Positions 8,405 through 60,125 of a DNA stretch of 64,000 bases are shown one piece after another. The notes under the pieces were generated by a model. That model searched no databases and was not told the origin of the DNA. It saw only the letters and a list, made by a program, of their open reading frames with translations. The DNA is taken from assembly GCF_000172155.1 (NCBI RefSeq), contig NZ_ABIZ01000001.1, positions 2,139,105-2,203,104 on the forward strand, read 5' to 3'. The stretch is from Verrucomicrobium spinosum DSM 4136 = JCM 18804 (GTDB taxonomy: Bacteria; Verrucomicrobiota; Verrucomicrobiia; Verrucomicrobiales; Verrucomicrobiaceae). Each line of letters opens with the position of its first letter. The stretch's first letter is position 1. The position numbers were made by a program, and so were the translations under genes.

Positions 8405-8467
8405 CCCAAAGTAGTCACAGGCTTCAGCCTGTTCAGGTGCGTGGCGGATGTGGTGCGTCGCCCGACC

Positions 8468-8578
8468 GCCGCAACTCCTTCGGAGTAGGAGTCATCGTTT
8501 CATGCACCCAACGTAGACTCGGTGGAAGCTCGTCAACGTTGGGCTTGTAGCCGCATCCTCTTCGAGGAACAATGACAA
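8468..8578. repeat. Solo fragment of the 630-bp repeat family (matches 21476-21580 and 22106-22211)
   Basis: ccgcaactccttcggagta…acccaacgtagactcg.tggaagctcgtcaacgttgggcttgtagcc.catcctcttcgaggaa is shared at about 90% identity with the tandem units. Confidence 0.6.
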
Positions 8579-8615
8579 ATGCCAGCGAACGATCCTCTGG
8601 AGCGTCGCGATAGGT

Positions 8616-11679: not shown

Positions 11680-11789
11680 GTCAGTGCGTCAGTGCGTCAG
11701 TGCGTCAGTGCGTCAGTGCGTCAGTGCGTCAGTGCGTCAGTGCGTCAGTGCGTCAGTGCGTCAGTGCGTCAGTGCGTCAGTGCGTCAGT
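11680..11789. repeat. Octamer microsatellite (GTCAGTGC)x13.6
   Basis: 13 perfect tandem units read directly from the sequence. Followed by gtttttgggttcgaggtaa, the same right flank as the locus at 29045. Confidence 0.95.
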
Positions 11790-13402: not shown

Positions 13403-13480
13403 CCTGACCGCGTAAACGCGGAACTCCAACCCTACTGGCGGGAACGGAGAGGGTTGGAGTTCCGCCTTTAGGCGGCTCAG
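13403..13480. repeat. Hairpin element family A, copy 2
   Basis: cctgaccgcgtaaacgcggaactccaaccctactggcgggaacggagagggttggagttccgcctttaggcggctcag. About 92% identical to copy 1. Confidence 0.75.
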
Positions 13481-13518
13481 GGAGAGAGTGAGATTGTCCA
13501 GCGGGTGCTAGTGGCCGC

Positions 13519-18879: not shown

Positions 18880-19848
18880 TTACTCAGCAAGGAGGCGCTC
18901 GACCTCGCTCTCGACCTTGCCCCGGGCATTGGTCTGGGCGAGCAGGCCCTGCTTGTTGATGAGCCACATCACGGGGATCATCTCGATGCCGAAGCGCTTG
19001 CAGAGTTCCCCGTCGCCCCCTTTGCCATCGAAATGCTGGGGCCACTTTAGGTTGTTCTGGCGGACGAAGGTCTCCAATGCGCCGCGATCCTGGTCGAGGG
19101 AGATGGCGACGACTTCGAAGCCTTTGTCGCGGTACTTTTCATAGGCTTTCGTGACATGCGGGAGTTCCTCGACACATGGGCCACACCAGGTGGCCCAGAA
19201 GTCGATGAGCACCACCTTGCCCCGCAGGGTTTCGAGATTCACTTCACGGCCGTCCAGGGCCGTGAATTTCAGATCCAGAGGCTTGGTGCGATACGGGGTG
19301 GTGAGCTGACTGCTGGCGAGCAGACGCTTGATTATCGCGTTGCGTGGGGAGAGCGGGTATTTCTCCAGGTGCTCGGCGGCCAGCTTTTCCCAGGCGGCAG
19401 CGCTGGCAGTGCTGCCGTCATTGGTCTCGTCCTGCATCACGCGCAGGGCACTGGCTTCAGACTTCGTGCGGTTGTCGGCATCGGGGGCGTTCAGAATCTG
19501 GGCGATGGCGTCCTTGGAGCCCTCGCGTACGGGCACGCCCAGCTCCTCGCGGGAACTGTTGGTCTGGCTTTCAAAGAGCAGCGCGCTCCAGCGGCGTGGG
19601 TCGGTGGGGAACTTCTCCACGAGCTCGCTGTAGGCGGCGTCATAGGCTGCGATGCTGGTCTTGTAGTACTCCTTGGCTTCCTCCTTGTTCTGGAACTGCT
19701 TGGTGGGGCTGGTGAGAGCCTGACGTGCGGCGCTGACTTTCTCCCAGAGGGCGTCCGCAGAGGAGGCGTCTGCCGCATGGAGAGAGGAGGTGAGTGAAAG
19801 CAGCAGGGCGGCAAAGAGAGGCAGGGCAGGTTTCATGGAAGCGTTCAC
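18880..19848 (-). CDS. TlpA-family thiol:disulfide oxidoreductase (thioredoxin fold), secreted
   Basis: KVVLIDFWATWCGPCVEELPHV…VVAISLD… contains the WCGPC active site. N-terminal signal peptide. Confidence 0.75.
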   Translation of the reverse strand: MNASMKPALPLFAALLLSLTSSLHAADASSADALWEKVSAARQALTSPTKQFQNKEEAKEYYKTSIAAYDAAYSELVEKFPTDPRRWSALLFESQTNSSREELGVPVREGSKDAIAQILNAPDADNRTKSEASALRVMQDETNDGSTASAAAWEKLAAEHLEKYPLSPRNAIIKRLLASSQLTTPYRTKPLDLKFTALDGREVNLETLRGKVVLIDFWATWCGPCVEELPHVTKAYEKYRDKGFEVVAISLDQDRGALETFVRQNNLKWPQHFDGKGGDGELCKRFGIEMIPVMWLINKQGLLAQTNARGKVESEVERLLAE

Positions 19849-20025
19849 AGCAGGGGAGGGAATGGGGAGGCTATCGAAAGGGTCAGACTAAAACGTACGA
19901 TGCCACCGATCTCCGAACGTGTTTTTTGCCGAAACACAGCTTCAATGGCGCTGGGCGTGGGCAATTCTCCTGCAATCCAGTCCAACCTTGCGCGTATCCG
20001 GGGTCTTTACTACGATCCCTCTCCA

Positions 20026-20915
20026 TGATGAAAAGTCTGCCTCTCCTCACTGCCTCTGCAATTGGGCTCCTGGCCGGAGCTGTCTTGCTGACCTCCCAAG
20101 CCGCGGATGCGCCTGCCGCTGCCGCCGCCTCTGAAAAGCCGACCACTGGCCTGCAGCTCTACAGTCTGCGGAGCCAGTTCAAGCTGCGCGGGGTGGCCTG
20201 GACGCTGGACCAGGTCAAGAGCTTTGGCATCACCGAGGTGGAGCTGGCGGGCACCTATGACCAGACGCCGGAACAGTTCAAAGGCGAGCTGGAAAAGCGC
20301 GGTCTCAAGGCGGTGAGCTCCCACTTCCCCTTTGGCCGTCTGAAAGGCGACATCGCCGGTGTGGTGAAGGACGCCAAGGCGCTTGGGCTCAAATACGCAG
20401 GGTGTGCCTGGATCGACCACAAGGATGGGTTCGATGAAGCAGAATGTCGCGAAGCCGCCTCCGTCTTCAACAAAGCTGGCGAAGCGCTGGCGAAGGAAGG
20501 CATCACCTTCTTCTACCACCCGCACGGGTATGAGTTCGTGCCTCATGGTGAGGGCACGCTGTTCGACGTGCTCTTTGCCGAGACGAAGCCGGAGTTTGTG
20601 AGCTACCAGATGGACGTGCTCTGGATCATCTTCCCCGGCCAGGATCCGGTGAAGCTGCTGGAGAAATACAGCAACCGCTGGAAGCTGATGCACTTGAAGG
20701 ACCTGAAGAAGGGCGTGGCCACGGGCTCCCTGTCCGGCAAGACAGACCTGGAAAATGATGTGGTGCTGGGCTCCGGCCAGACCAACTATCCCTCCGTGCT
20801 GGAAACGGCCAAGAAGGTGGGCGTGAAACATTATTTCATCGAAGACGAATCCCCCTCCGTCATGGAGCAGGTGCCCCAGAGCCTGAAGTACATGAAGTCT
20901 CAGGGATTTGAGTGA
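20026..20915 (+). CDS. Sugar phosphate isomerase/epimerase (xylose-isomerase-like TIM barrel), secreted
   Basis: Start moved to MMKSLPLLTASAIGLLAGAVLLTSQAADA (signal peptide). Family resemblance over LQLYSLRSQF…GITEVELAG…FFYHPHGYEF. Confidence 0.7.
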
Positions 20916-20950
20916 GATTGGGTTGCGCGCTGATTAGCGAGTGAATTTAG

Positions 20951-20990
20951 AGGCCGGGGGTGCGAACCTCCGGCCTTTTTGTTTGAGGAG
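20951..20990 (+). terminator. Rho-independent terminator of the isomerase gene
   Basis: aggccgggggtgcgaacctccggcc followed by tttttgttt. Confidence 0.5.
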
Positions 20991-21020
20991 GTGAGGACTA
21001 GACGCCTGAACCAGTGCGCT

Positions 21021-22470
21021 GCGACACCATCGACACCCTTTTTGGAGGTTCACTGAGAAAGAGAGGAGGTGTTTTTTGGGGTAAGTTGTAAAAAGGGTGT
21101 CGATGGTGTCGCAGAGAGCGAGGTTTTGGGGGTGCTGACTGGATGGCCTGCTCCCTATTGCGCGAGCGCACAGGCTGCCTGCCAAGAAACCGACTCCGGT
21201 TCAGTTCGCAGTTTATCCCTGAAGGGGATATCTAGCACAGCCCAGTGGTTGGACGAGCCTTAAGCGAGTCAACCCTGGGTACCCTCCGCAGAGGATGATC
21301 AGGTGGGAAGGCTGACAGCATTCGCTTTCTTGCCACCGCTTTCAACGCCTCCACGTCAGACGGATGCGATGTCATGTGCTGTCTGACGTTCGCGGCAAGA
21401 TGCCGTGAACAGCACGCAGGGATGCGTGCGCTCCCCGAGCTTCCCATGCACAGGTCATGTTGAGGAACTGCCAGACCGCTACAACTCCTTCGGAGTAAAA
21501 ACCTCCAACACCCGTACCCAACGTAGACTCGCTGGAAGCTCGTCAACGTTGGGCTTGTAGCCCCATCCTCTTCGAGGAAGAACTTCGACTGAGGGCGTGG
21601 ACGGTTGGTGTCTTGGTGGCCACCCCGAGCGTGGGGCTTGGGCAGTTTTTCTTAGGTAGTCAACCACAGGGGTGTCTGTGAACAGGTGTTTTGCGACACC
21701 ATCGACACCCTTTTTACAACTTACCCCAAAAAATACCCCCTCTCTTTTTTTGTGAACCTCCAAAAAGGGTGTCGATGGTGTCGCAGAGAGCGAGGTTCTG
21801 GGTGTGCTGACTGGATGGCCTGCTTCCTATTGCGCGAGCGCACCGGCTGCCTGCCAAGAAACCGACTCCGGTTCAGTTCGCAGTTTATCCCCGAAGGGGA
21901 TATCTAGCACAGCCCAGTGGTTGGACGAGCCTTAAGCGAGTCAACCCTGGGTATCTCCGCAGAGGATGATCAGGTGGGACGGCCGACAGCATTCGCTTCT
22001 TGCCACCGCCATCAACGCCTCCACGTCAGACGGATGCGATGTCATGTGCTGCGTGCGCTCCCCGAGCTTCCCATGCACAGGTCATTTTGAGGAAATGCCA
22101 GACCGCTACAACTCCTTCGGAGTAAAAACCTCCAACGCCCGTGCCCAACGTAGACTCGCTGGAAGCTCGTCAACGGTGGGCTTGTGGCCCCATCCTCTTT
22201 GAGGAAGAACTTCGACTGAGCGCATGGACGGTTGGTGTCTTGGTGGCCACCCCGAGCGTGGGGCTTGGGCGGTTTCCCTTAGGTCGTCAACCACAGCGGC
22301 GTCTGTGAACAGGTATTCTGCGACACCATCGACACCCTTTTTACAACTTACACCAAAAAAACACCCCTCTCTTTTTCTGTGAACCTCCAAAAAGGGTGTC
22401 GATGGTGTCGCAGAGGGCGAGGTCCCGGGGGTGCTGACTGGATGGCCCGCTTCCTATCGCACCAACGCGC
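21021..22470. repeat. Tandem array of a roughly 630-bp unit (2.3 copies; periods 671 and 627 bp, about 94% identity), each unit starting with a 24-bp perfect inverted repeat enclosing a 46-bp loop
   Basis: IR arms TGCGACACCATCGACACCCTTTTT / AAAAAGGGTGTCGATGGTGTCGCA at 21021-21114, 21692-21785 and 22319-22412. The loop in copy 1 is the reverse complement of the loop in copies 2 and 3. Copy 1 has a 44-bp indel. Confidence 0.85.
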
Positions 22471-22540
22471 AGGCGGTCGGCGTGTTGTAGGCCGGGAGAC
22501 TCTGACCGGAACGGTGTGCCCGCGCCTCCTCTCAACCAAC

Positions 22541-22568
22541 AAAAAACCCCGGAAGCTGCCTTCCGGGG
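22541..22568 (-). terminator. Rho-independent terminator downstream of the PVC heme-binding protein gene (hairpin with U-tracts on both strands)
   Basis: aaaaaaCCCCGGAAGctgcCTTCCGGGGtcctttgaatttt. On the minus strand the hairpin is followed by TTTTTTGTTGG. Confidence 0.6.
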
Positions 22569-22611
22569 TCCTTTGAATTTTGACGTTTGAATTTTGAAGT
22601 TTTATTTCCTC

Positions 22612-25600
22612 CTACTGCCCTGGCAGCGCCACTTGGGAGTCGCTCGTCAAATAGGCCATGAGGTTGCGCACCTGCTCGTCGGTCAGCGCCAGCAGCAGTC
22701 CCTCGGGCATCAAGGACACGGGCAGCTCCTGGATGCTGGTGATGTCTCCGCGCTCCACGACCTGCTCCTGGCCCACCATCTTGATGGTGAGGGTGCGGTC
22801 GGTCTTCGCAGCGATGTTGCCACTGAGGATGCGGCCATCCTTGAGGTTCACCACGGACATCTTGTAGTCGGCGGCCAGCGTGGCGCTGGGATCCGCGATG
22901 TTCTCGATGAGGTAGTTCACGTCCTTGCGGCCGCTGCCGGTGAGGTCGGGGCCGATGAGGTTGCCCTCACCGTAGAGCTTGTGGCAGGCGGCGCACACCT
23001 GGTTGAAGATCACCCGCCCGGCGCTGGCGTCTGCCTTGGACACGAGTTCCTTGGTCAGCTTGCCTTTGAGGGCGGCGATGAGTTGCTGCTTGTCGGCACT
23101 GGATTCGCGGATGTCGCCCCACACTTCGGTGAGTTGCTTGTCCAGCTCGGCGTCCTTGAAGCTGCGCATCTGCCGGGCCTGGTAGGGGGTGATGTCCTTC
23201 CGGGGGATCTGGTTGGGAGCCGTGCCCACCTGCTTGAGCATCGCCTTGGCGAAGTTTGCCCGGGAGGTGAGGGTGTCCATCACCGCCGGTTGCTCGTTGG
23301 GGTAGAAGCTGCGGTAGCTCTTGGCCAGGGACTCGCCGATCTTCAGGTCGTCATACAGCGCCAGCCCGCGCACGGCGGTCATGTTCAGATCGCGCGTCTT
23401 GAGCAGCTTCTCGCACACCTCGCGCAGGCCGTCGGCCTTGGCAGCAATGAGGGACTGCAAAGCGTTGCGCCGGGCGGCGAAGTCTGCCTTGTCATCCAGC
23501 ACCAGTTTCTTGATGTCGTCGAGCGCGCGGCCGTCGCCAAAGAGGGCGCTCAGGGCGCGGAGCTGTTCCTGCTGGGTGGCCTCTGACACCTTTGCGGCAA
23601 AAGCATCCCAGGCGGCGGGCTTCTTCGCCTTGGCCCAGCCCTTGAGGCCGTCAGTCATCCCTTGCAGGATGTCGGCGGAGTTCGAGGGGGCAACGTTGCC
23701 CAGCAGGGTGTTGAGCGGAGCCGGGTTAGTCTCGATGTCCTCCGTGCAGCGGCGGGCGATGAACTGGCGGACCAGCGGGATCTGGCACCCGGGCTCCAGC
23801 TTGGCGAGCTCTGCCGGGGGCATGTCCATGATGCCATACCAGTACATCAGCGGCAGGTAGGCGTCCTTGGCATCGTCAGCATGACTTAGGAGCTGGTTGG
23901 CCAGGGCGGGCTTTTCTGCATCGGCCAGTCGGCCAAGAGCGGAGGCCAGATGCAGGCGGACGAATGCGCTGTCCTCCTCCTTGGCGAGGCTCGCCAAGAT
24001 GCGCGCGGTGCGGGGCGTGGGGCCCTCAGCCGTGATGGATTGCAGCACCCAGCGGCGCAGGAATTCGCTATCGGACTTGATCATCTCCGCCACCATGGCG
24101 GCGATGGCATCCTGGGCGGCGGGGGAGTCTGCTCCCAGCAGCCCGGCGTATCCCATGGTCCACCAGGCGTTGAGCTTCTTGGCGGGGGTGGGGGCGGTCT
24201 TGAAGGTGTCGAGCACCTGCTTGGCCACTGCGGGTACTTTGCCGCGGTGGGCGCGCTCGCGCAGCTCCCAGCGGGCCATGCGCACGAGCCACTCGTTGTC
24301 GCTGAGCTGGAGTTTCACCAGCTCTTCATCGCTGAGCTTGGTGACGTCTGTCTCCTTGGGCTTCACCGCATCGCCGTAGGTCACTTTGAAGATGCGGCCG
24401 GAGTTGCGATGCACGCCGTCATTCTCATGGCACTCGCCGATGTCGCTCCAGTCCAGGATATACACGCCGCCGTCCGGCCCGTAGGTGAGCTCCACGCCGC
24501 GGAACCACGTGTCGTCGCTCTTCAGGATGTCGGGCTCATGCTTGCCGACGAAGGTGCTGCCCTGGCGCTCCAGACGTTCCACATTGATGCGGCGTCCGTG
24601 CAGGTTCAGGGTCATCACCTTGTCCCGGTATTCTTTGGGCCAGTTCGTGCCCTGGTAGAGGATCATGCCGACGTGGGCGTGGCCGCCGCCCAACTGGTCG
24701 TTCACACCCACTCCGCCACGGGAGTCCGTCCAGCTCTTGCCGGTATCCCAGTGGTAGTGGTCGGCGATCTGGTCCATGAGCTGGTAGGCCCGGGGATTGA
24801 GATCCTGCCCGTGCATGCGCTTGAGGTGGGCTCCGTCAATGCCGTGCCAGAGGTGGCCGATGACGGTGTTGATGAAAATGAGGTCGCCTGTGGCGGTCCA
24901 GTCATGGCCCCAGGGGTTCGTGGTGCCGTAGCACACGATCTCAAACTTTTTCTGCCCGGGCTGGTAGCGCCACAGGCCTCCAGCAATTCCCTGGCGTTTC
25001 TCCACCGGGGTTTCCGGCGTGCCCACGTAGGACGTGCTGCTGATGCCGCAACGTCCGTAGAGCCAGCCATCTGGACCCCACTTCAGGCCGTTGGCAAAGG
25101 TGTGCCGACTGGCGGCCTGGGTGCTGAAGCCGTCCAGCATGACCTGCGGAGGACCGTCAGGCTTGTCGTCGCCGTCCTTGTCCGGGATGAAGAGCAAATG
25201 AGGCGGGCACACGGCCCAGACGCCACCCAGGCCACGCTCGATGCTGGTGAGCATCTGCACCTCATCTGAGAACACGGTGCGTTTGTCGTATTTGCCGTCG
25301 TTGTCCGTGTCCTCGAAGATGAGGATCCGGTCACGAAGCTTCATGTCGTAGCGCTCTTTGGTGTCGGAGTAGGTGAAGTTCTCCGCGACCCAGAGGCGGC
25401 CTTTCTCGTCCCAGCAGCAGGCGATGGGATTGTTGACGTCTGGCTCTGCGGCGAAGAGCGTGGCTTTGAAGCCCTGAGGAAGGTTCAGCTTCTTGAGCGA
25501 CTCTTCTGCGGTCGGGAAGGGTATGGTAAGAGGCTGGTTGTCTGGTGGTACCGGGAAGTCTCCCGTCGCGAAAACGGGCAGGGCCATCGCGACCGTCAGG

Positions 25601-25650
25601 CAGGACGCCCCTAAGAGGGCGATTCGTGAGAGGGTGTTGCAGTAGGGCAT
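22612..25650 (-). CDS. PVC-type heme-binding CxxCH protein / membrane-bound dehydrogenase domain protein (GSDH-like beta-propeller + HEAT repeats + C-terminal cytochrome c)
   Basis: 1012 aa. Signal peptide. N-terminal FAAEPDVNNPIACCWDEKGRLWVAE. HEAT-like LHLASALGRLADAEK. C-terminal CAACHKLYGEG heme motif. Confidence 0.8.
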   Translation of the reverse strand: MPYCNTLSRIALLGASCLTVAMALPVFATGDFPVPPDNQPLTIPFPTAEESLKKLNLPQGFKATLFAAEPDVNNPIACCWDEKGRLWVAENFTYSDTKERYDMKLRDRILIFEDTDNDGKYDKRTVFSDEVQMLTSIERGLGGVWAVCPPHLLFIPDKDGDDKPDGPPQVMLDGFSTQAASRHTFANGLKWGPDGWLYGRCGISSTSYVGTPETPVEKRQGIAGGLWRYQPGQKKFEIVCYGTTNPWGHDWTATGDLIFINTVIGHLWHGIDGAHLKRMHGQDLNPRAYQLMDQIADHYHWDTGKSWTDSRGGVGVNDQLGGGHAHVGMILYQGTNWPKEYRDKVMTLNLHGRRINVERLERQGSTFVGKHEPDILKSDDTWFRGVELTYGPDGGVYILDWSDIGECHENDGVHRNSGRIFKVTYGDAVKPKETDVTKLSDEELVKLQLSDNEWLVRMARWELRERAHRGKVPAVAKQVLDTFKTAPTPAKKLNAWWTMGYAGLLGADSPAAQDAIAAMVAEMIKSDSEFLRRWVLQSITAEGPTPRTARILASLAKEEDSAFVRLHLASALGRLADAEKPALANQLLSHADDAKDAYLPLMYWYGIMDMPPAELAKLEPGCQIPLVRQFIARRCTEDIETNPAPLNTLLGNVAPSNSADILQGMTDGLKGWAKAKKPAAWDAFAAKVSEATQQEQLRALSALFGDGRALDDIKKLVLDDKADFAARRNALQSLIAAKADGLREVCEKLLKTRDLNMTAVRGLALYDDLKIGESLAKSYRSFYPNEQPAVMDTLTSRANFAKAMLKQVGTAPNQIPRKDITPYQARQMRSFKDAELDKQLTEVWGDIRESSADKQQLIAALKGKLTKELVSKADASAGRVIFNQVCAACHKLYGEGNLIGPDLTGSGRKDVNYLIENIADPSATLAADYKMSVVNLKDGRILSGNIAAKTDRTLTIKMVGQEQVVERGDITSIQELPVSLMPEGLLLALTDEQVRNLMAYLTSDSQVALPGQ

Positions 25651-29044: not shown

Positions 29045-29107
29045 GTCAGTGCGTCAGTGCGTCAGTGCGTCAGTGCGTCAGTGCGTCAGTGCGTCAGTGC
29101 GTCAGTT
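29045..29107. repeat. Octamer microsatellite (GTCAGTGC)x7.8, starting at the base after the TAG stop
   Basis: Direct reading. Same unit and same right flank (gtt.gggttcgaggtaa) as the locus at 11680. Confidence 0.95.
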
Positions 29108-30292: not shown

Positions 30293-30420
30293 GGTGCGTT
30301 GGTGCGTTGGTGCGTTGGTGCGTTGGTGCGTTGGTGCGTTGGTGCGTTGGTGCGTTGGTGCGTTGGTGCGTTGGTGCGTTGGTGCGTTGGTGCGTTGGTG
30401 CGTTGGTGCGTTGGTGCGTT
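30293..30420. repeat. Octamer microsatellite (GGTGCGTT)x16, starting 2 bp after the folD stop
   Basis: 16 perfect units read directly. Confidence 0.95.
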
Positions 30421-30439
30421 GATTTGCGTGTTATCTCAT

Positions 30440-30704
30440 GAACCCGGAGGGTTCGCCATGAGTAGCCATGGGTCGGCGGAGCGTAGCGAGGCCTACCCAT
30501 GGAAGTCTGGACGAAGGTTTCTACCGCGCAGGGGTAGGCCGATCGCGTTGCGAACCCCACACGAGATCCCGCCACACCACCCACTCAGACTTTGGTCGCC
30601 ATGGGCCTACCGCTCCGCGGTAGAAATCTCCATGTTGCTGTCCACGGGTAGCCATCGCTTCGTTCGGTCCACCCGTGGCTACTCATGGTGAACCCTCCGG
30701 GTTC
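30440..30704. repeat. MITE-like element with 34-bp terminal inverted repeats and nested internal palindromes (265 bp)
   Basis: Left end gaacccggagggttcgccatgagtagccatgggt, right end acccgtggctactcatggtgaaccctccgggttc (32/34 complementary). Internal tctaccgcg…cgcggtaga and ggcctacccatgg…ccatgggcctac. Confidence 0.55.
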
Positions 30705-30766
30705 GGCGTATGATGGAAGGTTCTAGGTGGTGACGACTTGGTCAGGGTGGGAGGTTGTTCGTAGTT

Positions 30767-30840
30767 CAAACTTTAGTTTGCTCAGTTTGCGGAATATCCC
30801 CTGAGGCAAACTAAAGTTTGAACTACGAACAGAGCCTCGC
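30767..30840. repeat. Perfect long hairpin (25-bp arms, extendable to about 30 bp)
   Basis: gttcgtagttcaaactttagtttgc…gcaaactaaagtttgaactacgaac, with ctcag…ctgag extending the stem. Confidence 0.8.
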
Positions 30841-31102: not shown

Positions 31103-32899
31103 TTAGTTTAACTCACTTGCCGGGCGCTGTGGCAAGGTGTCGCGCTTCACCATCATGGCCATGAGGGCATCCAGGAGGCCGCTGCCACCCTGGGCACCTG
31201 TGACGGCGACATCGGGCACGACGCGGACGTTGCGCTCGCCGATGATCTGCATGAGCTGGAGCATGGCGTAGTTCTGGTGGCCCAGTGACTCAACACCTGC
31301 CGTATAGGCTTCGGCCTTGGCGGTACCGGTGGCTCGAATGGCGTCGGCTTCACCATTGGCCCGCAGGCGGATGCTTTCGGCCTCACCCTCGCTCTTGCGC
31401 ACGCTGGCACGGGCTTGAAGTTCGGCGATCTGCACGCCCTGCTCTGCGCCCACCACCTGATGCTGAATGTCTGCGAGTGAGGTCTGGCGTACCAACTGCT
31501 GGCGTTGGGTCTCCGCCGCCTCCTGCATCTCATAGGTCTTGCGCTGCTCCTCCGCAATCTTGCGATCCGTCTGCGTCTTCATGAGTTGCTCGGGCGGGGT
31601 GATGTCGCCGATCAAAGTGTCGATGGCCTCCACATCGTACTCGCGCAGGGCGGCGGCAATGTGTTCCGCGGCCTCCGACTGGCGGTGACTGCGGGCACTG
31701 AGGAAGTCGAGCACGGTGTAGTCCTGGGCGGAGTTTCGGAAGTAGTTGCCCACGATGGGCTGCAGCACGTGGTCGATGAGGTTTTGGAGCGAGCCGGCGC
31801 GGCTGATCACTTTGGGAGCTTCGAGGGCGCCAATGTGAATGATCTGGGACACGTCGAGATTGAAAGCGAAACCGTCACGCGAGCGCACGGTGATGGAGCT
31901 GAGCTTGGCATCAAACTGGTGCGACTCCGTGCGGGTGGCCCAGTTCAGGACGATGTTGGTGGTGGGAACCAGCTCCACGCGCATGATGCGGGTGTTGAGC
32001 GGGTGTTTGCCCGGGTAGAGAGGGGAGATCCAGACGCCCTTGTGCCCGGGCAGGACGAGGTCGCCGTGCTTGAAGTCCACGCCGCTCACGTCCTCATGGG
32101 CTTGTCCAACGTAGGAAATAACAACGCCAACGTGGCCGATGGGGATCTCCACCATGGGCACCTGCTCGACCTGGGCAAACCAGGGGTTGAGGTTCCACAC
32201 GCCGCTCAGCAGAACCTGCTCCTGCAGGCCGCGGTGGCCTTCACTGTCGAGGAAGGATTGCGCGTTCTGGAAGTTGTCGTGCCCGGGGATGCTCGTGCCC
32301 GCGATCTCACCTTCTGCGATGGGGGCACCGTCCAGGGTGGTGACAATGCCCACGCGATCAGGCTCTACCTTGTAGAGTCGCAGCATCTCGGGGTTCAGGC
32401 CGTGATCCGTGGCGTTCCAGGAGGTGATCACGGTGAAGAGGGCGGAGTTAATCCGGTAGGTGCCGGCGGTAAGGATGGCGAGCTGGCGGCCTTTCTCCCC
32501 GCCTGCCGCCAGGAACGCCCGGGCGTTCTCAAAGTGGTTGCAGGGCACGGTGCGACCGAGGATTCGACCCGGAGGGATGGGGGCGCCGGCGGCGGCCACG
32601 ACGAGGGCAATCTCACCGGAGGGCACATAGGTGAGCGGCAAGTGAAGGATTCGGTACTGCCACTTCCAGTAGAAGAAGTGCAGGCCGGGCGGGAGCACAT
32701 CCGCCTGGTAGCCGGCCTCGCCTTTCAGCGCGATGATCTGCCCCGGGGGGAGGTTGCGCATGGCGAAGCGCTTGATGACAATGCCGACCTTCTGCTCCCC
32801 GATGTAAACAACACCAAGGAAGTACCAGAGGGCGATGAGGCTGAGGGGGATTTTCAGCCACCAGCTGTTCCAAATGAACTCTAAGATGTTCGTGATCAT
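31103..32899 (-). CDS. Flotillin-family (SPFH/band-7) protein
   Basis: Start set at the ATG at 32899 (MITNILEFIWNSWW…, N-terminal TM). Long SPFH domain, then a coiled-coil AEA-rich tail (EAAETQRQQLVRQTSLADIQHQVVGAEQGVQIAELQARA…) typical of YqiK/FloA-like flotillins. Confidence 0.8.
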   Translation of the reverse strand: MITNILEFIWNSWWLKIPLSLIALWYFLGVVYIGEQKVGIVIKRFAMRNLPPGQIIALKGEAGYQADVLPPGLHFFYWKWQYRILHLPLTYVPSGEIALVVAAAGAPIPPGRILGRTVPCNHFENARAFLAAGGEKGRQLAILTAGTYRINSALFTVITSWNATDHGLNPEMLRLYKVEPDRVGIVTTLDGAPIAEGEIAGTSIPGHDNFQNAQSFLDSEGHRGLQEQVLLSGVWNLNPWFAQVEQVPMVEIPIGHVGVVISYVGQAHEDVSGVDFKHGDLVLPGHKGVWISPLYPGKHPLNTRIMRVELVPTTNIVLNWATRTESHQFDAKLSSITVRSRDGFAFNLDVSQIIHIGALEAPKVISRAGSLQNLIDHVLQPIVGNYFRNSAQDYTVLDFLSARSHRQSEAAEHIAAALREYDVEAIDTLIGDITPPEQLMKTQTDRKIAEEQRKTYEMQEAAETQRQQLVRQTSLADIQHQVVGAEQGVQIAELQARASVRKSEGEAESIRLRANGEADAIRATGTAKAEAYTAGVESLGHQNYAMLQLMQIIGERNVRVVPDVAVTGAQGGSGLLDALMAMMVKRDTLPQRPASELN

Positions 32900-33608
32900 A
32901 AAATGCAGGGTAATGAGGTGCGAGGGGAATCTTGGATGACGATATGAGTGGTAGTTTCCTGGTGTCCCGTTTGCAGACGAGAGAGCGAGGCGTGGGCCTT
33001 GGGCGCACGTATTCCCTGTGCCGTTGACCCGGAGGCGGACCTCCGGCGGAGACACCAGATGGAATTGGGGGCGTATTACCGCGAACCGTGTCGCGGTGGC
33101 ACGGGAAGATTCAGAACCTGAACCCTAGGGCGCGATGGGGCGCAGGAAGGGCTGGTGGGATGACGGACTGCCGTGCAGCCGTCGGTGAATGGCGTGGCGC
33201 CGGTGCGTTGAGCAGTTGGCGCTGGCTGGGTATTTCATGTTCTCGTTGACCTTGCCGAACGAGACGGTCACCCGCCACGTGCAGCATGTTGCTGTTGGGG
33301 AGACCATGAAGCCTGCGAAGCAGACCCCAGAGAGATCGTCCCTCCCAAAATTGCCTGCGAGGTTAGCTGACGGGCTGGACCTTGGAAGTGGTCCCTGCAA
33401 GCGGTTGCCCGCTTCGTTCGCCCCGTCCTGATTCTCTTGCGAAAACCAGGAGTTCGGTTCCCCCGCGCCACTACTGAGGAAGCAGTAATGACTTCGGCTG
33501 ACAGTGGGATGTTATTCCATGGACCTTTTTTGTCAAATGGAACCGGTGACACCCCGGGCGGACCCTGCGCAAGTCCTTGTGATTCATGCTTGAAGTTGCG
33601 GGCGTTCG

Positions 33609-38371: not shown

Positions 38372-39436
38372 ATGCGGCAATCTCGTTTGAAGGCTCCGAA
38401 GGAATGGCCGGTGGCTTACTACCACTGTGTGTCGCGGGTGGTGGATCGCCGATTCGTGTTTGAGAAGGAGGAGAAGCGCCGGTTCGTGGAGTTGATGCGG
38501 TTTTATGAGCGGTTCTGTCAGGTGCAGGTGGTCACGTTCTGCGTCATGTCGAACCACTTTCATCTCTTGCTGGAGGTGCCGCAGCGCCCGCAGGTAATGC
38601 CGTCGGAGGAGTGGCTGATCGGGCACATCAAGGGGTGCTTTGGTGAGGCGATGGCGGGGGTGGTCGCGGAGCAGATCCGTCAGTTTCGTCAGGTCGGGGC
38701 AGACGGAGCGGCGGCAGAGGTGATCCAGGGCTGGTTTTCCCGCATGTGGGATGTGAGCCAGTTCATGAAGACGCTGAAGCAGCGCTTCACGCAGTGGTTC
38801 AACAAGCACCATGAGCGCCGGGGGACGCTGTGGGAGGACCGGTACAAGAGCACGATGGTGGAGGGAGGGCCAGCAGCACTGGGCATCATGGCCGCTTACA
38901 TAGACCTGAATCCGGTGCGTGCTGGTTTGGTGAAGGACCCGAAGGACTACCCATGGAGTGGGTACGGTGCCGCAGTGGCAGGGGCGAGCCGAGCAGGGAG
39001 GGGGCTGGCGATCGTGGCGAACTGCCTGGCCCAGCGCGAATTGCGACCCGCAGAGGTTTTGGCTCTCTACAGGCAGATGCTTTATGTCGCGGGAAATGCA
39101 GGTGATGATCTCAGCATTCAGCTTCGCAGGGAAGCCGGGACACAGAAAGCGGGCCTCCACAACGACGAAGTGACCAAGGTGCACGCCCAAGGTGGAAAAC
39201 TCACGCTACAGGAGATGCTGCGCTGTCGGGTGCGCTACTTCACGGCAGGAGCGGCGGTGGGCAGTCGGGAGTTTGTGAATGCCGTGTTTGATTCTGCCCG
39301 CGGTCGTTTTGGGGCGACACGGATCGAAGGAGCCCGCCCCATGCGAGGAGCGGATTTCATGGGGCTGTGCAGCCTGCGTGATCTGCAAAAGCGCGTGATC
39401 ACCCATCCCTCAGACGCGGGTGGAGGCGTCAACTGA
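38372..39436 (+). CDS. IS200-like HuH Y1 transposase homologue (RAYT-like, transposase_17 family)
   Basis: CVMSNHFHLLLEVP is the HuH motif. LWEDRYKSTMVE is the Tyr region. YIDLNPVRAGLVKDPKDYPWSGY. 354 aa, single copy, no terminal IRs, so probably domesticated. Confidence 0.7.
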   Translation: MRQSRLKAPKEWPVAYYHCVSRVVDRRFVFEKEEKRRFVELMRFYERFCQVQVVTFCVMSNHFHLLLEVPQRPQVMPSEEWLIGHIKGCFGEAMAGVVAEQIRQFRQVGADGAAAEVIQGWFSRMWDVSQFMKTLKQRFTQWFNKHHERRGTLWEDRYKSTMVEGGPAALGIMAAYIDLNPVRAGLVKDPKDYPWSGYGAAVAGASRAGRGLAIVANCLAQRELRPAEVLALYRQMLYVAGNAGDDLSIQLRREAGTQKAGLHNDEVTKVHAQGGKLTLQEMLRCRVRYFTAGAAVGSREFVNAVFDSARGRFGATRIEGARPMRGADFMGLCSLRDLQKRVITHPSDAGGGVN

Positions 39437-45884: not shown

Positions 45885-46550
45885 GTGGGGAAGAGCCGTC
45901 CCGGCTCTTGGGGGAGCTGGGTGGTGCGTGGACAAGAACCGAGACGGTTCTTCTACCATGGCGGTTGCCCGCGAGAGAGAAGGTAGAGGAGCCGTCCCGG
46001 CTCTTGGGTGCGCTGGATGGTGCGGGGACAAGAACCGGGACGGTTCTTCTACCCTGGCTGATGTCCGCGAGAGGGAATGTGGAAGAGCCGTCCCGGCTCT
46101 TGGGTGCGCTGGGTGACGCGTGGACAAGAACCGGGACGGTTCTTCTACCGTGGCGGTTGCCCGCGAGAGAGAAGGTAGAAGAGCCGTCCCGGCTCTTGGG
46201 TGCGCTGGATGGTGCGTGGACAAGAACCGGGACGGTTCTTCTACCGTGGCGGTTGCCTGCGAGAGAGAAGGTAGAGGAGCCGTCCCGGCTCTTGGGTGCG
46301 CTGGATGGTGCGGGGACAAGAACCGAGACGGTTCTTCTACCGTGGCGGTTGCCTGCGAGAGAGAATGTAGAAGAGCCGTCCCGGCTCTTGGGTGCGCTGG
46401 GTGACGCGTGGACAAGAACCGGGACGGTTCTTCTACCGTGGCGGTTGCCCGAGAGAGAGAATGTAGAAGAGCCGTCCCGGCTCTTGGGTGCGCTGGGTGA
46501 CGCGTGGACAAGAACCGGGACGGTTCTTCTACTATGGCGGATTTCCGCAC
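45885..46550. repeat. REPIN array: 7 tandem 96-bp units, each GTAG + AGAGCCG-TCC-CGGCTCT hairpin, 26-nt spacer and inverted AGAACCG-GGA-CGGTTCT hairpin
   Basis: Unit starts at 45890, 45986, 46082, 46178, 46274, 46370 and 46466 (exact 96-bp period). Fills the whole DUF1501-RAYT intergenic space. Confidence 0.9.
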
Positions 46551-46573: not shown

Positions 46574-47302
46574 TCAAGTGTTGGTTCCTTCGCTCAACTG
46601 CCTATTGCTCCCCACATATTCTGGATGTTCGCGAATGTAGTTCCGGATTCGCTCCAGACTGGCGCGGCTGCGCACGATGTGGTCGAAAGACTCGCGTTGC
46701 CATACCCTGCGATTCGGAAAATGAGATCGCAGCCCAGGCAGATGATCATCGATGATTTTGTTGAGTCGATGCGCTGAGTAGGACTTCCAAGAATGCAGAA
46801 TCTTGGAGAGATCATGTTCGGGATTTGGCGTCAAGATGGCGTGGACATGGTTTGACGCTACGACGTACTCGTCCAACTCGTAGCGAGCTCCAGCAAAATG
46901 ACGGATGGTTTGGGATGCGGAGTCCTTTGCGGGTTGATGGCTTAAAAGGCATGAACCACTGTTTGCATCCAACCAGCGCTGGAGACGCCTGGGAAATCGA
47001 TCATAGTACTCCTGACGGGTTAGCTTGTCATGAGGTTCGGGATGGCGCTTGAGCCAGTCTTCTCGATCCAGATGCCATTGATGTAGCTTGTCTTGAGGCA
47101 AAGCATCAGCCAGTCGAAAGGTGATGAAATAGGTCGTCGAGGCCTGCCTCCAATGTGGAAGATTCCCCGAAAGCACTTCTGTCGGAACGAGCTCTGAGTA
47201 GTAGACCCGGCTCTCATCTGGATTGGGAACGGGTTTATCCGGGGAATCCATGCGAAAACGAAGTGGCAGGTGTGCGGTAAAAGCCTGCCCATGTTGCGCC
47301 AT
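46574..47302 (-). CDS. REP-associated tyrosine transposase (RAYT; IS200-like HuH Y1 family)
   Basis: YYSELVPTEV… leads into the N-terminal TnpA_REP-like segment. HuH motif VVASNHVHAIL. WQRESFDHIVRS Tyr region. 242 aa, typical RAYT size. Flanked on both sides by REPIN arrays. Confidence 0.8.
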   Translation of the reverse strand: MAQHGQAFTAHLPLRFRMDSPDKPVPNPDESRVYYSELVPTEVLSGNLPHWRQASTTYFITFRLADALPQDKLHQWHLDREDWLKRHPEPHDKLTRQEYYDRFPRRLQRWLDANSGSCLLSHQPAKDSASQTIRHFAGARYELDEYVVASNHVHAILTPNPEHDLSKILHSWKSYSAHRLNKIIDDHLPGLRSHFPNRRVWQRESFDHIVRSRASLERIRNYIREHPEYVGSNRQLSEGTNT

Positions 47303-47319: not shown

Positions 47320-47575
47320 CCGACTCTTGGGAGTGCTGAGCCGTGCGGGGGCAAGAACCGGGACGGTTCTTCTACCCTGGCTGATGTCCGCGAGGGGGAA
47401 AGTGGAAGAGCCGTCTCGGCTCTTGATGGCGCTGAGCCGTGCGGGGGCAAGAACCGGGACGGTTCTTCTACCCTGGCTGATGTCCGCGAGGGGGGAAAGT
47501 GGAAGAGCCGTCTCGGCTCTTGATGGCGCTGGGCCGTGCGGGGCCAAGAACCGGGACGGTTCTTCTACTGTCCGG
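47320..47575. repeat. REPIN array (2.5 units of the same 96/97-bp unit) on the other side of the RAYT gene
   Basis: caagaaccgggacggttcttctaccctggctgatgtccgcgagggggaaagtggaagagccgtctcggctcttgatggcgctg repeats at 47352, 47448 and 47545. Confidence 0.85.
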
Positions 47576-57125: not shown

Positions 57126-57146
57126 GTGGGGGGGGCGGGAGCGGGA

Positions 57147-57226
57147 GTGATGGAGTGATGGAGTGATGGAGTGATGGAGTGATGGAGTGATGGAGTGATG
57201 GAGTGATGGAGTGATGGAGTGATGGA
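57147..57226. repeat. Octamer microsatellite (GTGATGGA)x10, 22 bp after the GNAT stop
   Basis: 10 perfect units read directly. Confidence 0.95.
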
Positions 57227-57356
57227 GTGGGCTTCTGGGAAGCTTGGGGAGCGCACGCATCTTGCGTGCTGTTCTCGGCATCTTGCCGGGAACGTCAGTC
57301 AGGGCGTTGTCGCGAAATGCACGTCCATATGGGAATGTGTCGTCGCTGCTGGAAAT

Positions 57357-57385
57357 GGTAGAAGAGCCGTCCCGGCTCTTGGCTT
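57357..57385. repeat. Solo REP (same family as the RAYT-flanking arrays)
   Basis: gGTAGAAGAGCCGTCCCGGCTCTTGG is identical to the array consensus, including GTAG. Confidence 0.65.
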
Positions 57386-57957
57386 TGGAAGAGGGAGACG
57401 TCGATCAATGACTGATGGCCATGGAGATGCAGAAGGCACCGGGCTGGGCGCAAGTCTTGTCGCCCTCCCCACCTGATCACCTTCTCCGGAGATACCCAGG
57501 GTCTCCGTCCACTTCGTGGCCTTTGCTCCTGGGCTGGGCTCTGAGGGCCTTTCAGGCACCAAACCCGCTCCGGAGACTATCAACGGAGGACCGACCCGCC
57601 AAGGAACCGCCTCCAGGGCGTTCGAATGCGATGTTGCACGAATGTTTGGTTGCGCCTCACGAGGCCCCCCGCTGACTGACGTTCCCGGCAGGATGCCGGA
57701 AACAGCACGCAAGATGCGTGCGCTCCCCAGGCTGCTCCCCCGGCACCCCTTTTCGTGCATTACCCTGAGTCAGCCATCAGGTTTAAGGAATTGACGAAAA
57801 TGAGTTGATAGAAGGTTCTGTTTTACTGGGCATCTATTGTGGCTGGCAACCAACAGGCCGCATTCCAAAATTCTGGGATTAGATCCATCCGTGTGGAGTC
57901 AAGAGAGCGATCCCCCAGTGTTGTCGATGACGTCAACAACACCAAACAAACTGACCC

Positions 57958-59421: not shown

Positions 59422-59429
59422 GGGGGAAG

Positions 59430-59503
59430 GAATTAGAAATTAGAAATTAGAAATTAGGAATGATGAATTAGGAATGATGAATTAGGAATGATGAATTAGG
59501 AAT
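59430..59503. repeat. Compound microsatellite (GAAATTA)x4 + (GAATGATGAATTAG)x3, 9 bp after the SDR stop
   Basis: Direct reading. Confidence 0.9.
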
Positions 59504-59508
59504 GGGGG

Positions 59509-60125
59509 CACGAGCTTCAAGCTCCCTCCTGGTGCGGCCTTGCTCGTGACTCGTGGCTGCGTTTGTCAAAACGCGGTCAGAGGCGTTGCTTGCACCTCAA
59601 GGCAGCAAGCCATCCTTTACGGTCGCCTGCACCCACGCATTCTTACGAATGCGTCCACGAGCTTCAAGCTCCCTCCTGGTGCGGCCCTGTTCGTGACTCG
59701 TGGCTGCGTTTGTTAAAACGCGGTCAGCGGCGTTTCTTGGACCTTAGGGAAGCAAGCCATCCGTTACCGTCGCCCGCACCCACGCATTCTTACGAATGCA
59801 TCCACGAGCATCGAGTTGCCTCGTGGTGCGGCCCTGTTCGTGACTCGTGGCTGCGTTTGTTAAAACGCGGTCAGCGGCGTTTCTTGGACCTTAGGGAAGC
59901 AAGCCATCCGTTACCGTCGCCCGCACCCACGCATTCTTACGAATGCATCCACGAGCATCGAGTTGCCTCGTGGTGCGGCCCTGTTCGTGACTCGTGGCTG
60001 CGTTTGTCAAAACGCGGTCAGAGGCGTCGCTTGCACCTCAAGGCAGCAAGCCATCCCGCATGGTCGCCCGCACCTACGCATTCTTACGAATGCGTCCACG
60101 AGCTTCGAGTTCGCCCTCGTGATCG
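59509..60125. repeat. Tandem array of a 147-bp hairpin-rich unit, 4.2 copies, in an A-B-B-A variant order
   Basis: Unit starts (cacgagc…) at 59509, 59656, 59803, 59950 and 60097. Each unit carries CACGAGC…GCTCGTG, GCGTTTG-TYAA-AACGC and CGCATTC-TTAC-GAATGCG palindromes. Units 2 and 3 are identical. Confidence 0.9.

Follow-up and report, generated by a model that had tools for sequence, protein, structure and literature searches.

A tandem array of hairpin-rich, non-coding repeats with one reversed palindrome loop in Verrucomicrobium spinosum

Introduction

An intergenic array of Verrucomicrobium spinosum is built from repeats, each headed by a palindrome, and the loop of the first palindrome runs in the opposite direction to the loops of the others. 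Is such a loop part of a DNA-inversion switch in operation, or does it record recombination within a palindrome? Both had been offered in an initial annotation of the 64-kb stretch of DNA analyzed here (the window), which also named a satellite-like family and a structured non-coding RNA family as candidates. Nothing relevant was found in the literature on V. spinosum repeats.

Layout and borders of the array

The 1.7-kb region separates two convergent genes, stop codon to stop codon. The upstream gene (20025-20915) encodes a sugar-phosphate isomerase/epimerase, and the downstream gene (22612-25650, minus strand) encodes a PVC-type haem-binding DUF7133 protein. A repeat search of the window found direct repeats spaced by 672 and 627 bp, and the tandem copies of a palindrome-headed unit of about 630 bp proposed initially are indeed present: 2.27 copies (672, 627, and ~175 bp) span 21007-22481, between the inward-facing terminators of the two neighbors. 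The elements of the locus are as follows.

20949..20985, plus strand: terminator hairpin and T-run of the upstream gene (13-pair stem with a T tail), left border
21007..21678, no strand assigned: tandem unit copy 1, 672 bp
21020..21113, no strand assigned: palindrome P1, with a loop (21044-21089) in the "GGAGG..." orientation between arms 21020-21043 and 21090-21113
21679..22305, no strand assigned: tandem unit copy 2, 627 bp
21692..21785, no strand assigned: palindrome P2, loop in the "ACAAC..." orientation
22306..22481 (end approximate), no strand assigned: partial unit copy 3, from the repeat alignment
22319..22412, no strand assigned: palindrome P3, loop in the "ACAAC..." orientation
22536..22575, minus strand: terminator hairpin and T-run of the downstream gene, right border

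No sigma-70-like promoter was found in 20800-22700, loop included, and neither tRNA nor tmRNA was found. An origin or terminus of replication was rejected because GC skew is uniformly positive.

Palindromes with a reversed loop

Every copy begins with a 94-bp palindrome, in which arms of 24-26 nt, 100% complementary to each other, enclose a loop of 46 nt. P1 matches the reverse complement of P2 and P3 with 93-95% identity over 95-97 nt. The inversion of the first loop seen in the initial annotation is therefore real, while its coordinates, given as 21045-21090, had to be shifted to 21044-21089, and the loop is not an exact reverse complement of the others: after reversal, loops 1 and 2 are identical at 41 of 46 positions and differ at five, and loops 2 and 3 themselves differ at 5/46. 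Loops are thus reversed between identical arms whose flanks are homologous in direct orientation, which is the pattern of a hairpin-mediated small inversion. As DNA hairpins, the palindromes have folding energies between -29 and -34 kcal/mol, with z-scores of -9.7 to -12 relative to shuffled sequences.

The arm, TGCGACACCATCGACACCCTTTTT, contains two direct heptamers (CGACACC-N2-CGACACC), mirrored across the loop, and is not self-complementary. Its 17-mer core occurs exactly six times in the 64 kb, always in the palindromes; with up to three mismatches allowed, seven sites are found (the seventh with three mismatches), against 0.44 expected by chance. The ends of the palindrome read 5'-TG...CA-3', and the whole has a MITE-type architecture, with perfect terminal inverted repeats of 24-26 bp around a non-coding core of 46 bp.

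Loop orientation in related lineages

The same locus carries no unit in strain BvORR106, 1.27 units in BvORR034, at least two in a metagenome lineage (L130/L134), and 2.27 in V. spinosum. In BvORR034 the order is P1 (GGAGG), unit, P2 (ACAAC), and partial unit; its single unit is a mosaic of copies 1 and 2. The metagenome lineage shows the same orientation pattern, and the right-hand end point of partial copy 3 is common to both. In BvORR106 an unrelated sequence of 320 bp replaces the array. Both terminators are kept there, the left one being present in all lineages. A further lineage, L135, also lacks the array.

In all eight palindromes of the three array-bearing lineages (V. spinosum, BvORR034, and L130/L134), the first loop is inverted and the later loops are all in the other orientation. 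Furthermore, substitutions in the loops of these eight palindromes co-segregate with orientation and are diagnostic of it. The constancy of orientation at each position, together with the linked substitutions, shows that the inversion of the P1 loop is fixed and older than the split of the three lineages.

These observations bear directly on the idea that a site-specific recombinase flips the palindrome as an active switch, an idea to which perfect inverted repeats around an asymmetric segment, found in both orientations within one genome, lend some appeal. However, orientation follows position and not strain, and the substitutions are tied to it. Unitigs of four independent sequencing runs reach 5 nt into the GGAGG loop without an earlier branch, at the arm-loop junction or before. 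The loop has no promoter and no gene to regulate; with both neighboring genes directed inward and closed by terminators, there is nothing to switch. The nearby recombinase sought at the suggestion of the initial annotation did not appear: Pfam scans and pre-computed annotations of the ORFs from 345 to 47302 (~47 kb) gave no invertase or integrase, no recombinase was found within about 15 kb of the array, and the sole recombinase-like ORFs encode RAYT-like Y1 proteins at 38372-39436 and 46574-47302, 16 and 24 kb away. In addition, the two sites lie ~70 bp apart from center to center, which is too short for recombinase synapsis. Typical invertons measure a few hundred bp, and more than 75% of those catalogued are under 300 bases (PMC11602134). 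An active switch is extremely improbable; of the two original proposals, recombination within the palindrome stands, as a one-off historical event.

Two Logan contigs (L121 and L132), in which the flanks of P3 and P1 are joined to a P2-type loop, were rejected as evidence for switching or conversion, because with k = 31 and arms of 24-26 bp the three loops form parallel bubbles that the assembler collapses.

Divergence of the array and constancy of the arms

Between V. spinosum and BvORR034 the array is 96.4% identical (986/1023), whereas third codon positions are 82% identical (3675/4480) and other long intergenic regions 82-88%; the divergence of the array is three to five times below that of third codon positions. 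Inside the upstream gene, BvORR034 is 96-99% identical to the array-less BvORR106, and from ~20830 it switches to 98% identity with V. spinosum and L130, which marks a recombination breakpoint adjoining the array. The haplotype that bears the array has moved between lineages by homologous recombination. The low divergence might instead mean purifying selection and not recent recombinational spread, and to that extent it counts against the explanation favored below; purifying selection was considered as its cause and not adopted, because the breakpoint directly adjoins the array.

Of the 16 arms from the three lineages, 15 share one sequence, whereas the loops are variable at 10 of 47 columns (Fisher p = 0.014). 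This pattern, which also counts against the favored explanation, hints at a sequence-specific constraint on the arms. The array could, for instance, be a DNA-level element under selection, whose arms bind a protein or extrude as cruciforms and which insulates the convergent genes from each other or forms a topological barrier. The constant arms, the low divergence, the very stable hairpins, and a position exactly between two inward-facing terminators would all agree with it. Nevertheless, BvORR106 and the L135 lineage have no such array, its copy number varies freely, and its low divergence is explained by the breakpoint beside it. Nor do the arms differ significantly in variability from the unit body (p = 0.30); one L130 arm holds an uncompensated change, and the heptamer pair is absent from the rest of the 64-kb window. 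Selection on such an element is unlikely. It is highly unlikely that the arms are the recognition site of a hairpin- or cruciform-binding protein (a transposase, a resolvase-like enzyme, or a nucleoid factor) that flips the loop at low frequency in an array selected as an insulator. If the arms were a protein-binding site, the element would be more interesting; as known, it is ordinary repeat DNA.

The unit body and its modules

Outside the palindromes, three further features are needed to describe the unit.

21380..21423, no strand assigned: extra 44-nt segment, in copy 1 only, at the dyad center of the unit
8460..8579, plus strand: dispersed copy of unit positions ~407-526 (hairpin module "b"), 80-83% identity
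57236..57733, minus strand: sequence related to the central part of the unit but diverged, with inverted repeats and an internal match

The bodies, the ~530 bp that follow the palindrome in each unit, have 94.9% identity over 533 aligned nt, apart from the extra segment of 44-45 nt in copy 1, in agreement with the figure of about 94% and the indel reported initially. Neither copy 2 nor any unit of BvORR034 or L130 has this segment, which completes a hairpin module of ~65 nt that recurs at 57236-57302 and 57671-57728. The body of copy 2 (21786-22318) is a degenerate palindrome centered near 22048, with nested arms that are 79% and 71% complementary. The identity of the unit to its own reverse complement is 66-67%, with a score of 156 against 70 +/- 20 in shuffles (z = 4.3). 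The unit body is an old, decayed palindrome assembled from smaller hairpin modules.

Pieces of the unit are also found apart from the array. The recurrence first placed at 8468-8578 was recovered as a piece of 113-120 nt at 8460-8579, which occupies another gap between convergent genes. Near 57 kb, inverted repeats of 62 nt (57241-57302 and 57672-57733; 93.5% identity), homologous to the central module, are separated by ~370 bp, and this interior includes a 45-nt match to the unit at 57458-57502; the unit pieces there run 57236-57302 (minus), 57458-57502 (minus), and 57671-57728 (plus).

Absence of coding and RNA signals

Neither of two ORFs in the units (ORF94 and ORF104) is on record as a called gene by exact look-up. 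ORF94, the 94-codon frame already dismissed in the initial annotation, has 15 nonsynonymous against three synonymous codon changes, with differences distributed as 8/8/4 over the codon positions. A protein-coding gene was rejected on this lack of purifying selection, on a frameshift of ORF94 in L130, and on five single-nucleotide indels among the four units.

Alternatively, each unit might give rise to one large, rod-like structured RNA or to several small RNAs. UUCG- or GAA-type loops cap many local hairpins, the unit is predicted to fold back on itself, half against half, over a long range (182 pairs), divergence is low, and G.T mismatches slightly exceed A.C mismatches on the plus strand (15-23 vs. 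8-16). These counts, however, give no clear strand preference, the asymmetry not being significant. The scan against Rfam 15 proposed initially gave no gathering-level match in the region; the best matches are generic miRNA-hairpin models with 24-30 bits against cut-offs of 57-105 bits. As RNA, the units gain nothing over shuffled sequences in folding energy (z = -1.66 and -0.54). Compensatory changes are found at none of the 182 predicted pairs, a count of low power with four full units at 94-97% identity, and several substitutions disrupt hairpins. Moreover, there is no promoter-like site, and the terminators wall the array off from neighboring transcription. A structured RNA, as proposed at the outset, is very unlikely, while the satellite-like, repeated nature of the unit is borne out.

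Relation to mobile and palindromic repeats

The 94-bp palindrome might be a miniature transposable element that was inserted into the center of a pre-existing palindrome, with the loop orientations reflecting independent insertions either way. Its size and terminal repeats resemble bacterial MITEs of the Correia/RUP type, another palindrome, at 30756-30831, is about as long and has 25-nt arms, and the orthologous site of BvORR106 is without the array. On the other hand, none of the eight copies has a target-site duplication at its flanks, and homology between the flanks of different copies means that palindrome and unit were duplicated as one. The 64 kb contain no solitary copy, exact 20-22-mer arm matches are missing from the viral and JGI metagenome collections, and no parent IS with matching ends was seen. 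Insertion of a miniature element is therefore rather unlikely to account for the two orientations.

The MITE component of our own reading faces some of the same evidence. Mobility is the defining property of a MITE, and the lack of target-site duplications counts against it. So does the lack of a second full copy in the 64-kb window and in ~45 kb of the loci of relatives; the only dispersed pieces are the sub-modules at 8460-8579 and 57236-57733. The outside collections, which likewise count against mobility, gave no real match: BLASTN of the palindrome and the unit against plasmids and phages in distant mode found nothing, viral collections held neither the 22-mer arm nor a 32-mer of module b, and the 20-mer arm had one chance match, in a Pseudomonas-like coding region, in the JGI metagenome collection. 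The 17-mer core, too short a pattern for a collection of 596 Gb of genomes, gave 120 chance matches there, none with the palindrome.

Different repeats accompany the two RAYT-type ORFs; one of these ORFs is flanked by tandem arrays in which GTAG-hairpin REPs form inverted pairs (45890-46540 and 47335-47568). With RAYT-like genes and REP arrays in the same window, palindromic repeat proliferation is active in this genome. The array resembles REPINs in having two inverted short repeats around a spacer and RAYT-like genes in the same window. Unlike those of REP/REPIN-RAYT systems, however, its arms are not hairpins, have no GTAG motif, share no sequence with the GGTAG-hairpin REPs that flank the RAYT gene, and are not adjacent to such a gene.

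Probable origin and comparison with known systems

All things considered, we think it reasonably probable that the array is a non-coding, hairpin-rich, MITE/BIME-like repeat, lineage-specific, with a copy number set by unequal recombination and with one historical loop inversion. It would be confined to the V. spinosum-like lineage, in a transcriptionally insulated space between two terminators, where the number of units would change by unequal homologous recombination or replication slippage between them. By analogy with plastid inversions (PMC12371153), the loop may have been reversed once without a dedicated enzyme; likely routes would be intrastrand template switching, or recombination between the two 24-bp arms once a hairpin or cruciform had been extruded. 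Or the two palindromes may have started as inverted ends of one ancestral element. Such an array would probably have no regulated function and would at most keep convergent transcription units passively apart through its strong hairpins.

Hairpin-associated small inversions in plastid non-coding DNA were reportedly described by Kelchner and Wendel in 1996. As in plastids, where inversions of 4-50 bp are put down to the hairpin itself, with no need of a dedicated enzyme (PMC12371153), a short asymmetric loop (46 bp here) is reversed between perfect inverted repeats while the flanks are unchanged. Unlike the plastid cases, the V. spinosum palindrome is found in a bacterial chromosome, has longer arms (24-26 bp), and belongs to a tandem array; plastid phylogenies show recurrent flip-flop, whereas orientation in the array is stable across three lineages.

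With bacterial MITEs and mosaic repeats (Correia/CREE, RUP, ERIC, and BIME/REP) the array shares its non-coding, hairpin-forming nature, modules that recur elsewhere, an intergenic position downstream of convergent genes, and a presence that varies among close relatives. Its unit, however, is far larger (~630 bp) and tandem instead of dispersed, and unlike MITEs it shows no target-site duplication, parent transposase, or multiple full copies in the 64-kb window and the loci of relatives. Like the invertons (fimS, hin, and those of Bacteroides), it has inverted repeats that flank a segment known in two orientations, but the segment is only 46 bp, with no promoter, adjacent recombinase, or downstream gene, and its orientation at each position is fixed across strains. 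It is thus a clean bacterial case of hairpin-loop inversion that resembles a phase-variation switch and yet is fixed, a caution for pipelines that predict invertons from inverted repeats alone.

The window is also rich in other palindromic and tandem intergenic repeats, which documents this property of V. spinosum intergenic DNA. Such repeats break short-read assemblies: de Bruijn contigs of several runs end in the arms or collapse the three loops.

Location and anatomy of the array

The array of V. spinosum occupies the interval separating the stop codons of two convergent genes (20916-22611), whose products are the Verrucomicrobium spinosum proteins WP_009960008.1 and WP_009960009.1, and it is wholly enclosed by two intrinsic terminators, both facing inward. 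The array probably represents a MITE- or BIME-like palindromic repeat, non-coding and specific to the lineage, residing in this transcriptionally insulated gap.

Features of the array locus
20025 (true start)-20915, upstream gene, sugar-phosphate isomerase/epimerase with AP_endonuc_2 fold
20949-20985, plus strand, intrinsic terminator at the left border of the gap
21020-21113, palindrome heading copy 1 (P1)
21692-21785, palindrome heading copy 2 (P2)
22319-22412, palindrome heading the partial copy 3 (P3)
22536-22575, minus strand, intrinsic terminator at the right border of the gap
22612-25650, minus strand, downstream gene, PVC-type haem-binding DUF7133 protein of 1012 aa

Direct repeats with spacings of 672 and 627 bp cover 21007-22481 and amount to 2.27 copies, bearing out the tandem units headed by a perfect-armed palindrome that were described in the initial annotation. 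Each palindrome has perfectly complementary arms of 24-26 nt around a 46-nt loop, and the CGACACC heptamer is found twice per arm in direct orientation, at a distance of 9 bp. Folded as DNA hairpins, the palindromes reach -29 to -34 kcal/mol, 10-12 sd past shuffles. The unit bodies are 94.9% identical and copy 1 has an additional segment of 44-45 nt, as expected from the earlier estimate of about 94% with an indel in copy 1. The unit body of ~530 bp is itself a decayed palindrome, with nested arm pairs that are 71-79% complementary and a centre near 22048; its identity to its own reverse complement is 64-67%, scoring 4.3 sd over shuffles. This dyad centre is where the 44 nt peculiar to copy 1 lie, completing a two-hairpin module of ~65 nt; two further copies of the module, inverted relative to each other, are found at 57241-57302 and 57672-57733. 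Another module (unit positions ~407-526) recurs at 8460-8579, likewise between convergent genes, where a partial recurrence had indeed been noticed (8468-8578). The region 57236-57733 consists of 62-nt inverted repeats, 93.5% identical, around ~370 bp; its arms share homology with the array's central module, the 44 nt specific to copy 1 included, and within its interior 45 nt match a separate part of the unit, differently arranged.

P1 matches the reverse complement of P2 and P3 at 93-95% over 95-97 nt while the flanks are collinear, and therefore the inversion of the loop is real. The loops had been reported as exact reverse complements, but the inversion is inexact: once reversed, loop 1 has 5 mismatches to loop 2 among 46 positions, as many as separate loops 2 and 3. 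A reversed palindrome between collinear flanks might also be seen if the 94-bp palindrome were an independent MITE inserted in two orientations, which we consider unlikely; the 17-nt arm core has exactly six exact occurrences in the window, all in the palindromes, and seven sites at up to three mismatches (0.44 expected).

The same locus in related lineages

The related strain Verrucomicrobium sp. BvORR034 harbors P1 (loop GGAGG...), one 627-bp unit, P2 (loop ACAAC...) and a partial unit of ~70 nt, i.e., 1.27 copies; the partial unit and the right junction are the same as those of V. spinosum, and the 44-nt segment is absent. One JGI metagenome lineage (contigs L130 and L134) has an inverted P1, unit 1, a forward P2, another unit and a forward last palindrome, with at least two units across the two contigs and the right junction as elsewhere. 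In strain BvORR106, both terminators are retained with an unrelated 320 bp between them, and the array is wholly absent. Another lineage has ~2.4 kb of genes inserted at the array site: in the BvORR106-like contig L135 (Logan SRR29660192, 1726-4447), the insert carries a 193-aa ORF and a TauD-family gene, and after it the 3′ end of the upstream gene and its terminator occur a second time. The array site looks like a hot spot of rearrangement. Nothing related to the array came up in scans of viral contigs, JGI metagenomes, plasmids or phages, and a scan of the genome collection with the 17-mer arm core, a short pattern, gave chance matches only.

Unit number probably shifts through unequal recombination or slippage, as judged from the spread of copy numbers among lineages (0, 1.27, at least 2 and 2.27) together with the mosaic unit of BvORR034, whose 5′ end is like V. 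spinosum copy 1 and whose 3′ end is like copy 2, a pattern expected if a unit was lost by unequal crossing-over. Across eight complete palindromes, arms are identical in 15 of 16 cases, the first palindrome always has one orientation and every later palindrome has the opposite one. Because orientation is constant by position and first-position loops have common substitutions absent from the other loops, the orientation difference is older than the split of these lineages, with no flip since. The loop of the first palindrome was probably reversed a single time in the distant past, likely by template switching or by recombination across the arms once a hairpin had been extruded. The same process has been invoked for hairpin-loop inversions of 4-50 bp in plastid DNA (PMC12371153), a range to be compared with the 46-nt loop of the array. 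Alternatively, P1 and P2 may once have been the inverted ends of one element of ~720 bp; in BvORR034 they form a 97-nt inverted repeat (96%) around 529 bp.

An invertible switch had been proposed from the reversed loop, and a recombinase-driven switch that is still active is hardly credible. Besides the constant orientation, no invertase or integrase was found among the ORFs examined (345-47302), and no sigma-70-like promoter is present at the array. Only two recombinase-like ORFs were seen there, at 16 and 24 kb from the array; they encode RAYT-like Y1 proteins and have GTAG-hairpin repeats of their own, unrelated to it. Furthermore, the two sites would be only ~70 bp apart, and synapsis usually needs DNA far longer than this. 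There is no indication of a regulated function. Two further suggestions of the initial annotation, recombination within the palindrome and a satellite-like repeat, are supported.

Short-read assemblies add a caution on the loops. In four independent runs, Logan unitigs cross from unique sequence on the left through the arm and end 5 nt inside the GGAGG loop, an obligatory stop of the k = 31 graph, with no earlier branch. Since k exceeds the arm length (24-26 bp), the three loops become interchangeable and collapse as bubbles; the P2-type loops set in other flanks in Logan contigs L121 and L132 were treated as an assembly artefact for this reason, one that imitates exchange of sequence among the copies. 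De Bruijn contigs from at least five runs (L122-L124, L131, L133) stop within or just beyond the first palindrome arm.

Conservation and recombination

Identity between V. spinosum and BvORR034
Third codon positions of 12 genes, 82% (3675/4480)
Other long intergenic regions, 82-88%
Array region, 96.4% (986/1023)

Taken alone, these figures would suggest constraint on the array. A sliding comparison of four lineages points elsewhere: in the upstream gene, BvORR034 has 96-99% identity to BvORR106, which lacks the array, and from ~20830 on it abruptly becomes 98% identical to V. spinosum and L130. Third-position identity also climbs towards the array in both neighboring genes. Homologous recombination has therefore exchanged the array-bearing haplotype between lineages, which accounts for the low divergence with no need for selection, though selection might act in addition. 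Variable columns are fewer in arms than in loops (2/48 vs. 10/47, p = 0.014), but the difference from the unit body is not significant (50/534, p = 0.30). A selected protein-binding or cruciform insulator is quite unlikely. Fine-scale mosaicism among Verrucomicrobium lineages is also seen on comparing 18880-21019 with L126, L127 and L130; BvORR034 is ~99% identical to the metagenome lineage in the thioredoxin-like gene, closest to BvORR106 in the isomerase gene and closest to V. spinosum from ~20830 on. Such mosaicism points to frequent homologous recombination in tracts of <1 kb.

Coding, RNA and origin tests

As noted earlier, the 94-codon ORF evolves without purifying selection: codon changes between copies are 15 nonsynonymous and 3 synonymous, differences by codon position are 8/8/4, and one lineage has a frameshift. 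Together with the five single-nucleotide indels that set apart the four full units, these changes led us to reject a coding array. A structured non-coding RNA encoded by the array, another earlier candidate, is very unlikely. Folding z-scores are -1.66 (plus strand) and -0.54 (minus strand), none of 182 pairs in the consensus structure has compensatory changes, local hairpins are broken by several substitutions, and a promoter is lacking as described. The asymmetry of G.T vs. A.C mismatches between unit halves is weak (15-23 vs. 8-16). The Rfam scan of the region yielded nothing at gathering score, with only generic miRNA-hairpin noise at the palindromes, and the tRNA/tmRNA search found none. 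A replication origin or terminus is ruled out by GC skew that is positive throughout.

Other repeats and features in the window

The window, part of an 8.2-Mb genome, is rich in intergenic repeats, including microsatellites, tandem arrays (96/97-bp and 147-bp) and other long palindromes. Perfect 8-bp microsatellites of three kinds are found at four intergenic sites.

Microsatellites
11680-11789, GTCAGTGC, 13.8 copies
29045-29106, GTCAGTGC, 7.8 copies
30293-30421, GGTGCGTT, 16 copies
57144-57229, GGAGTGAT, 10.8 copies

The sequences adjoining the first two share homology (83%), also with 13403-13481, and these microsatellites therefore belong to a dispersed repeat. A 147-bp unit is repeated in tandem at 59509-60121 (4.2 copies, 92% match), preceded by short AT-rich repeats of 7, 14 and 28 bp at 59428-59504.

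The RAYT-like ORF at 46574-47302 (minus strand) has a Pfam match to Y1_Tnp and, below cut-off, a best NCBIfam match to REP-associated tyrosine transposase. It is flanked on both sides by 96/97-bp tandem arrays (45890-46540, 6.8 copies; 47335-47568, 2.4 copies), whose unit contains two inverted REPs, each GGTAG plus a hairpin with an 8-bp stem, differing by a compensatory G-C to A-T pair; this arrangement resembles a REPIN. A solitary copy of the GGTAG-hairpin REP lies at 57357-57382. The second, longer RAYT-like ORF (38372-39436, plus strand, 354 aa, N-terminal Y1_Tnp match) is tightly packed between the genes for a DinB-type polymerase and a release factor, without flanking repeats.

A c-di-AMP riboswitch of the ydaO type (33337-33509, minus strand; 60.8 bits, gathering score 38) is located upstream of a minus-strand SPFH/Band 7 gene (31103-33055, 650 aa). 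At 30440-30704 there is a 265-nt quasi-palindrome, 70% self-complementary with well-matched ends of ~45 nt, and after it comes a near-perfect palindrome of 76 nt whose arms measure 25 nt (30756-30831); both are further hairpin elements in the intergenic DNA of V. spinosum.
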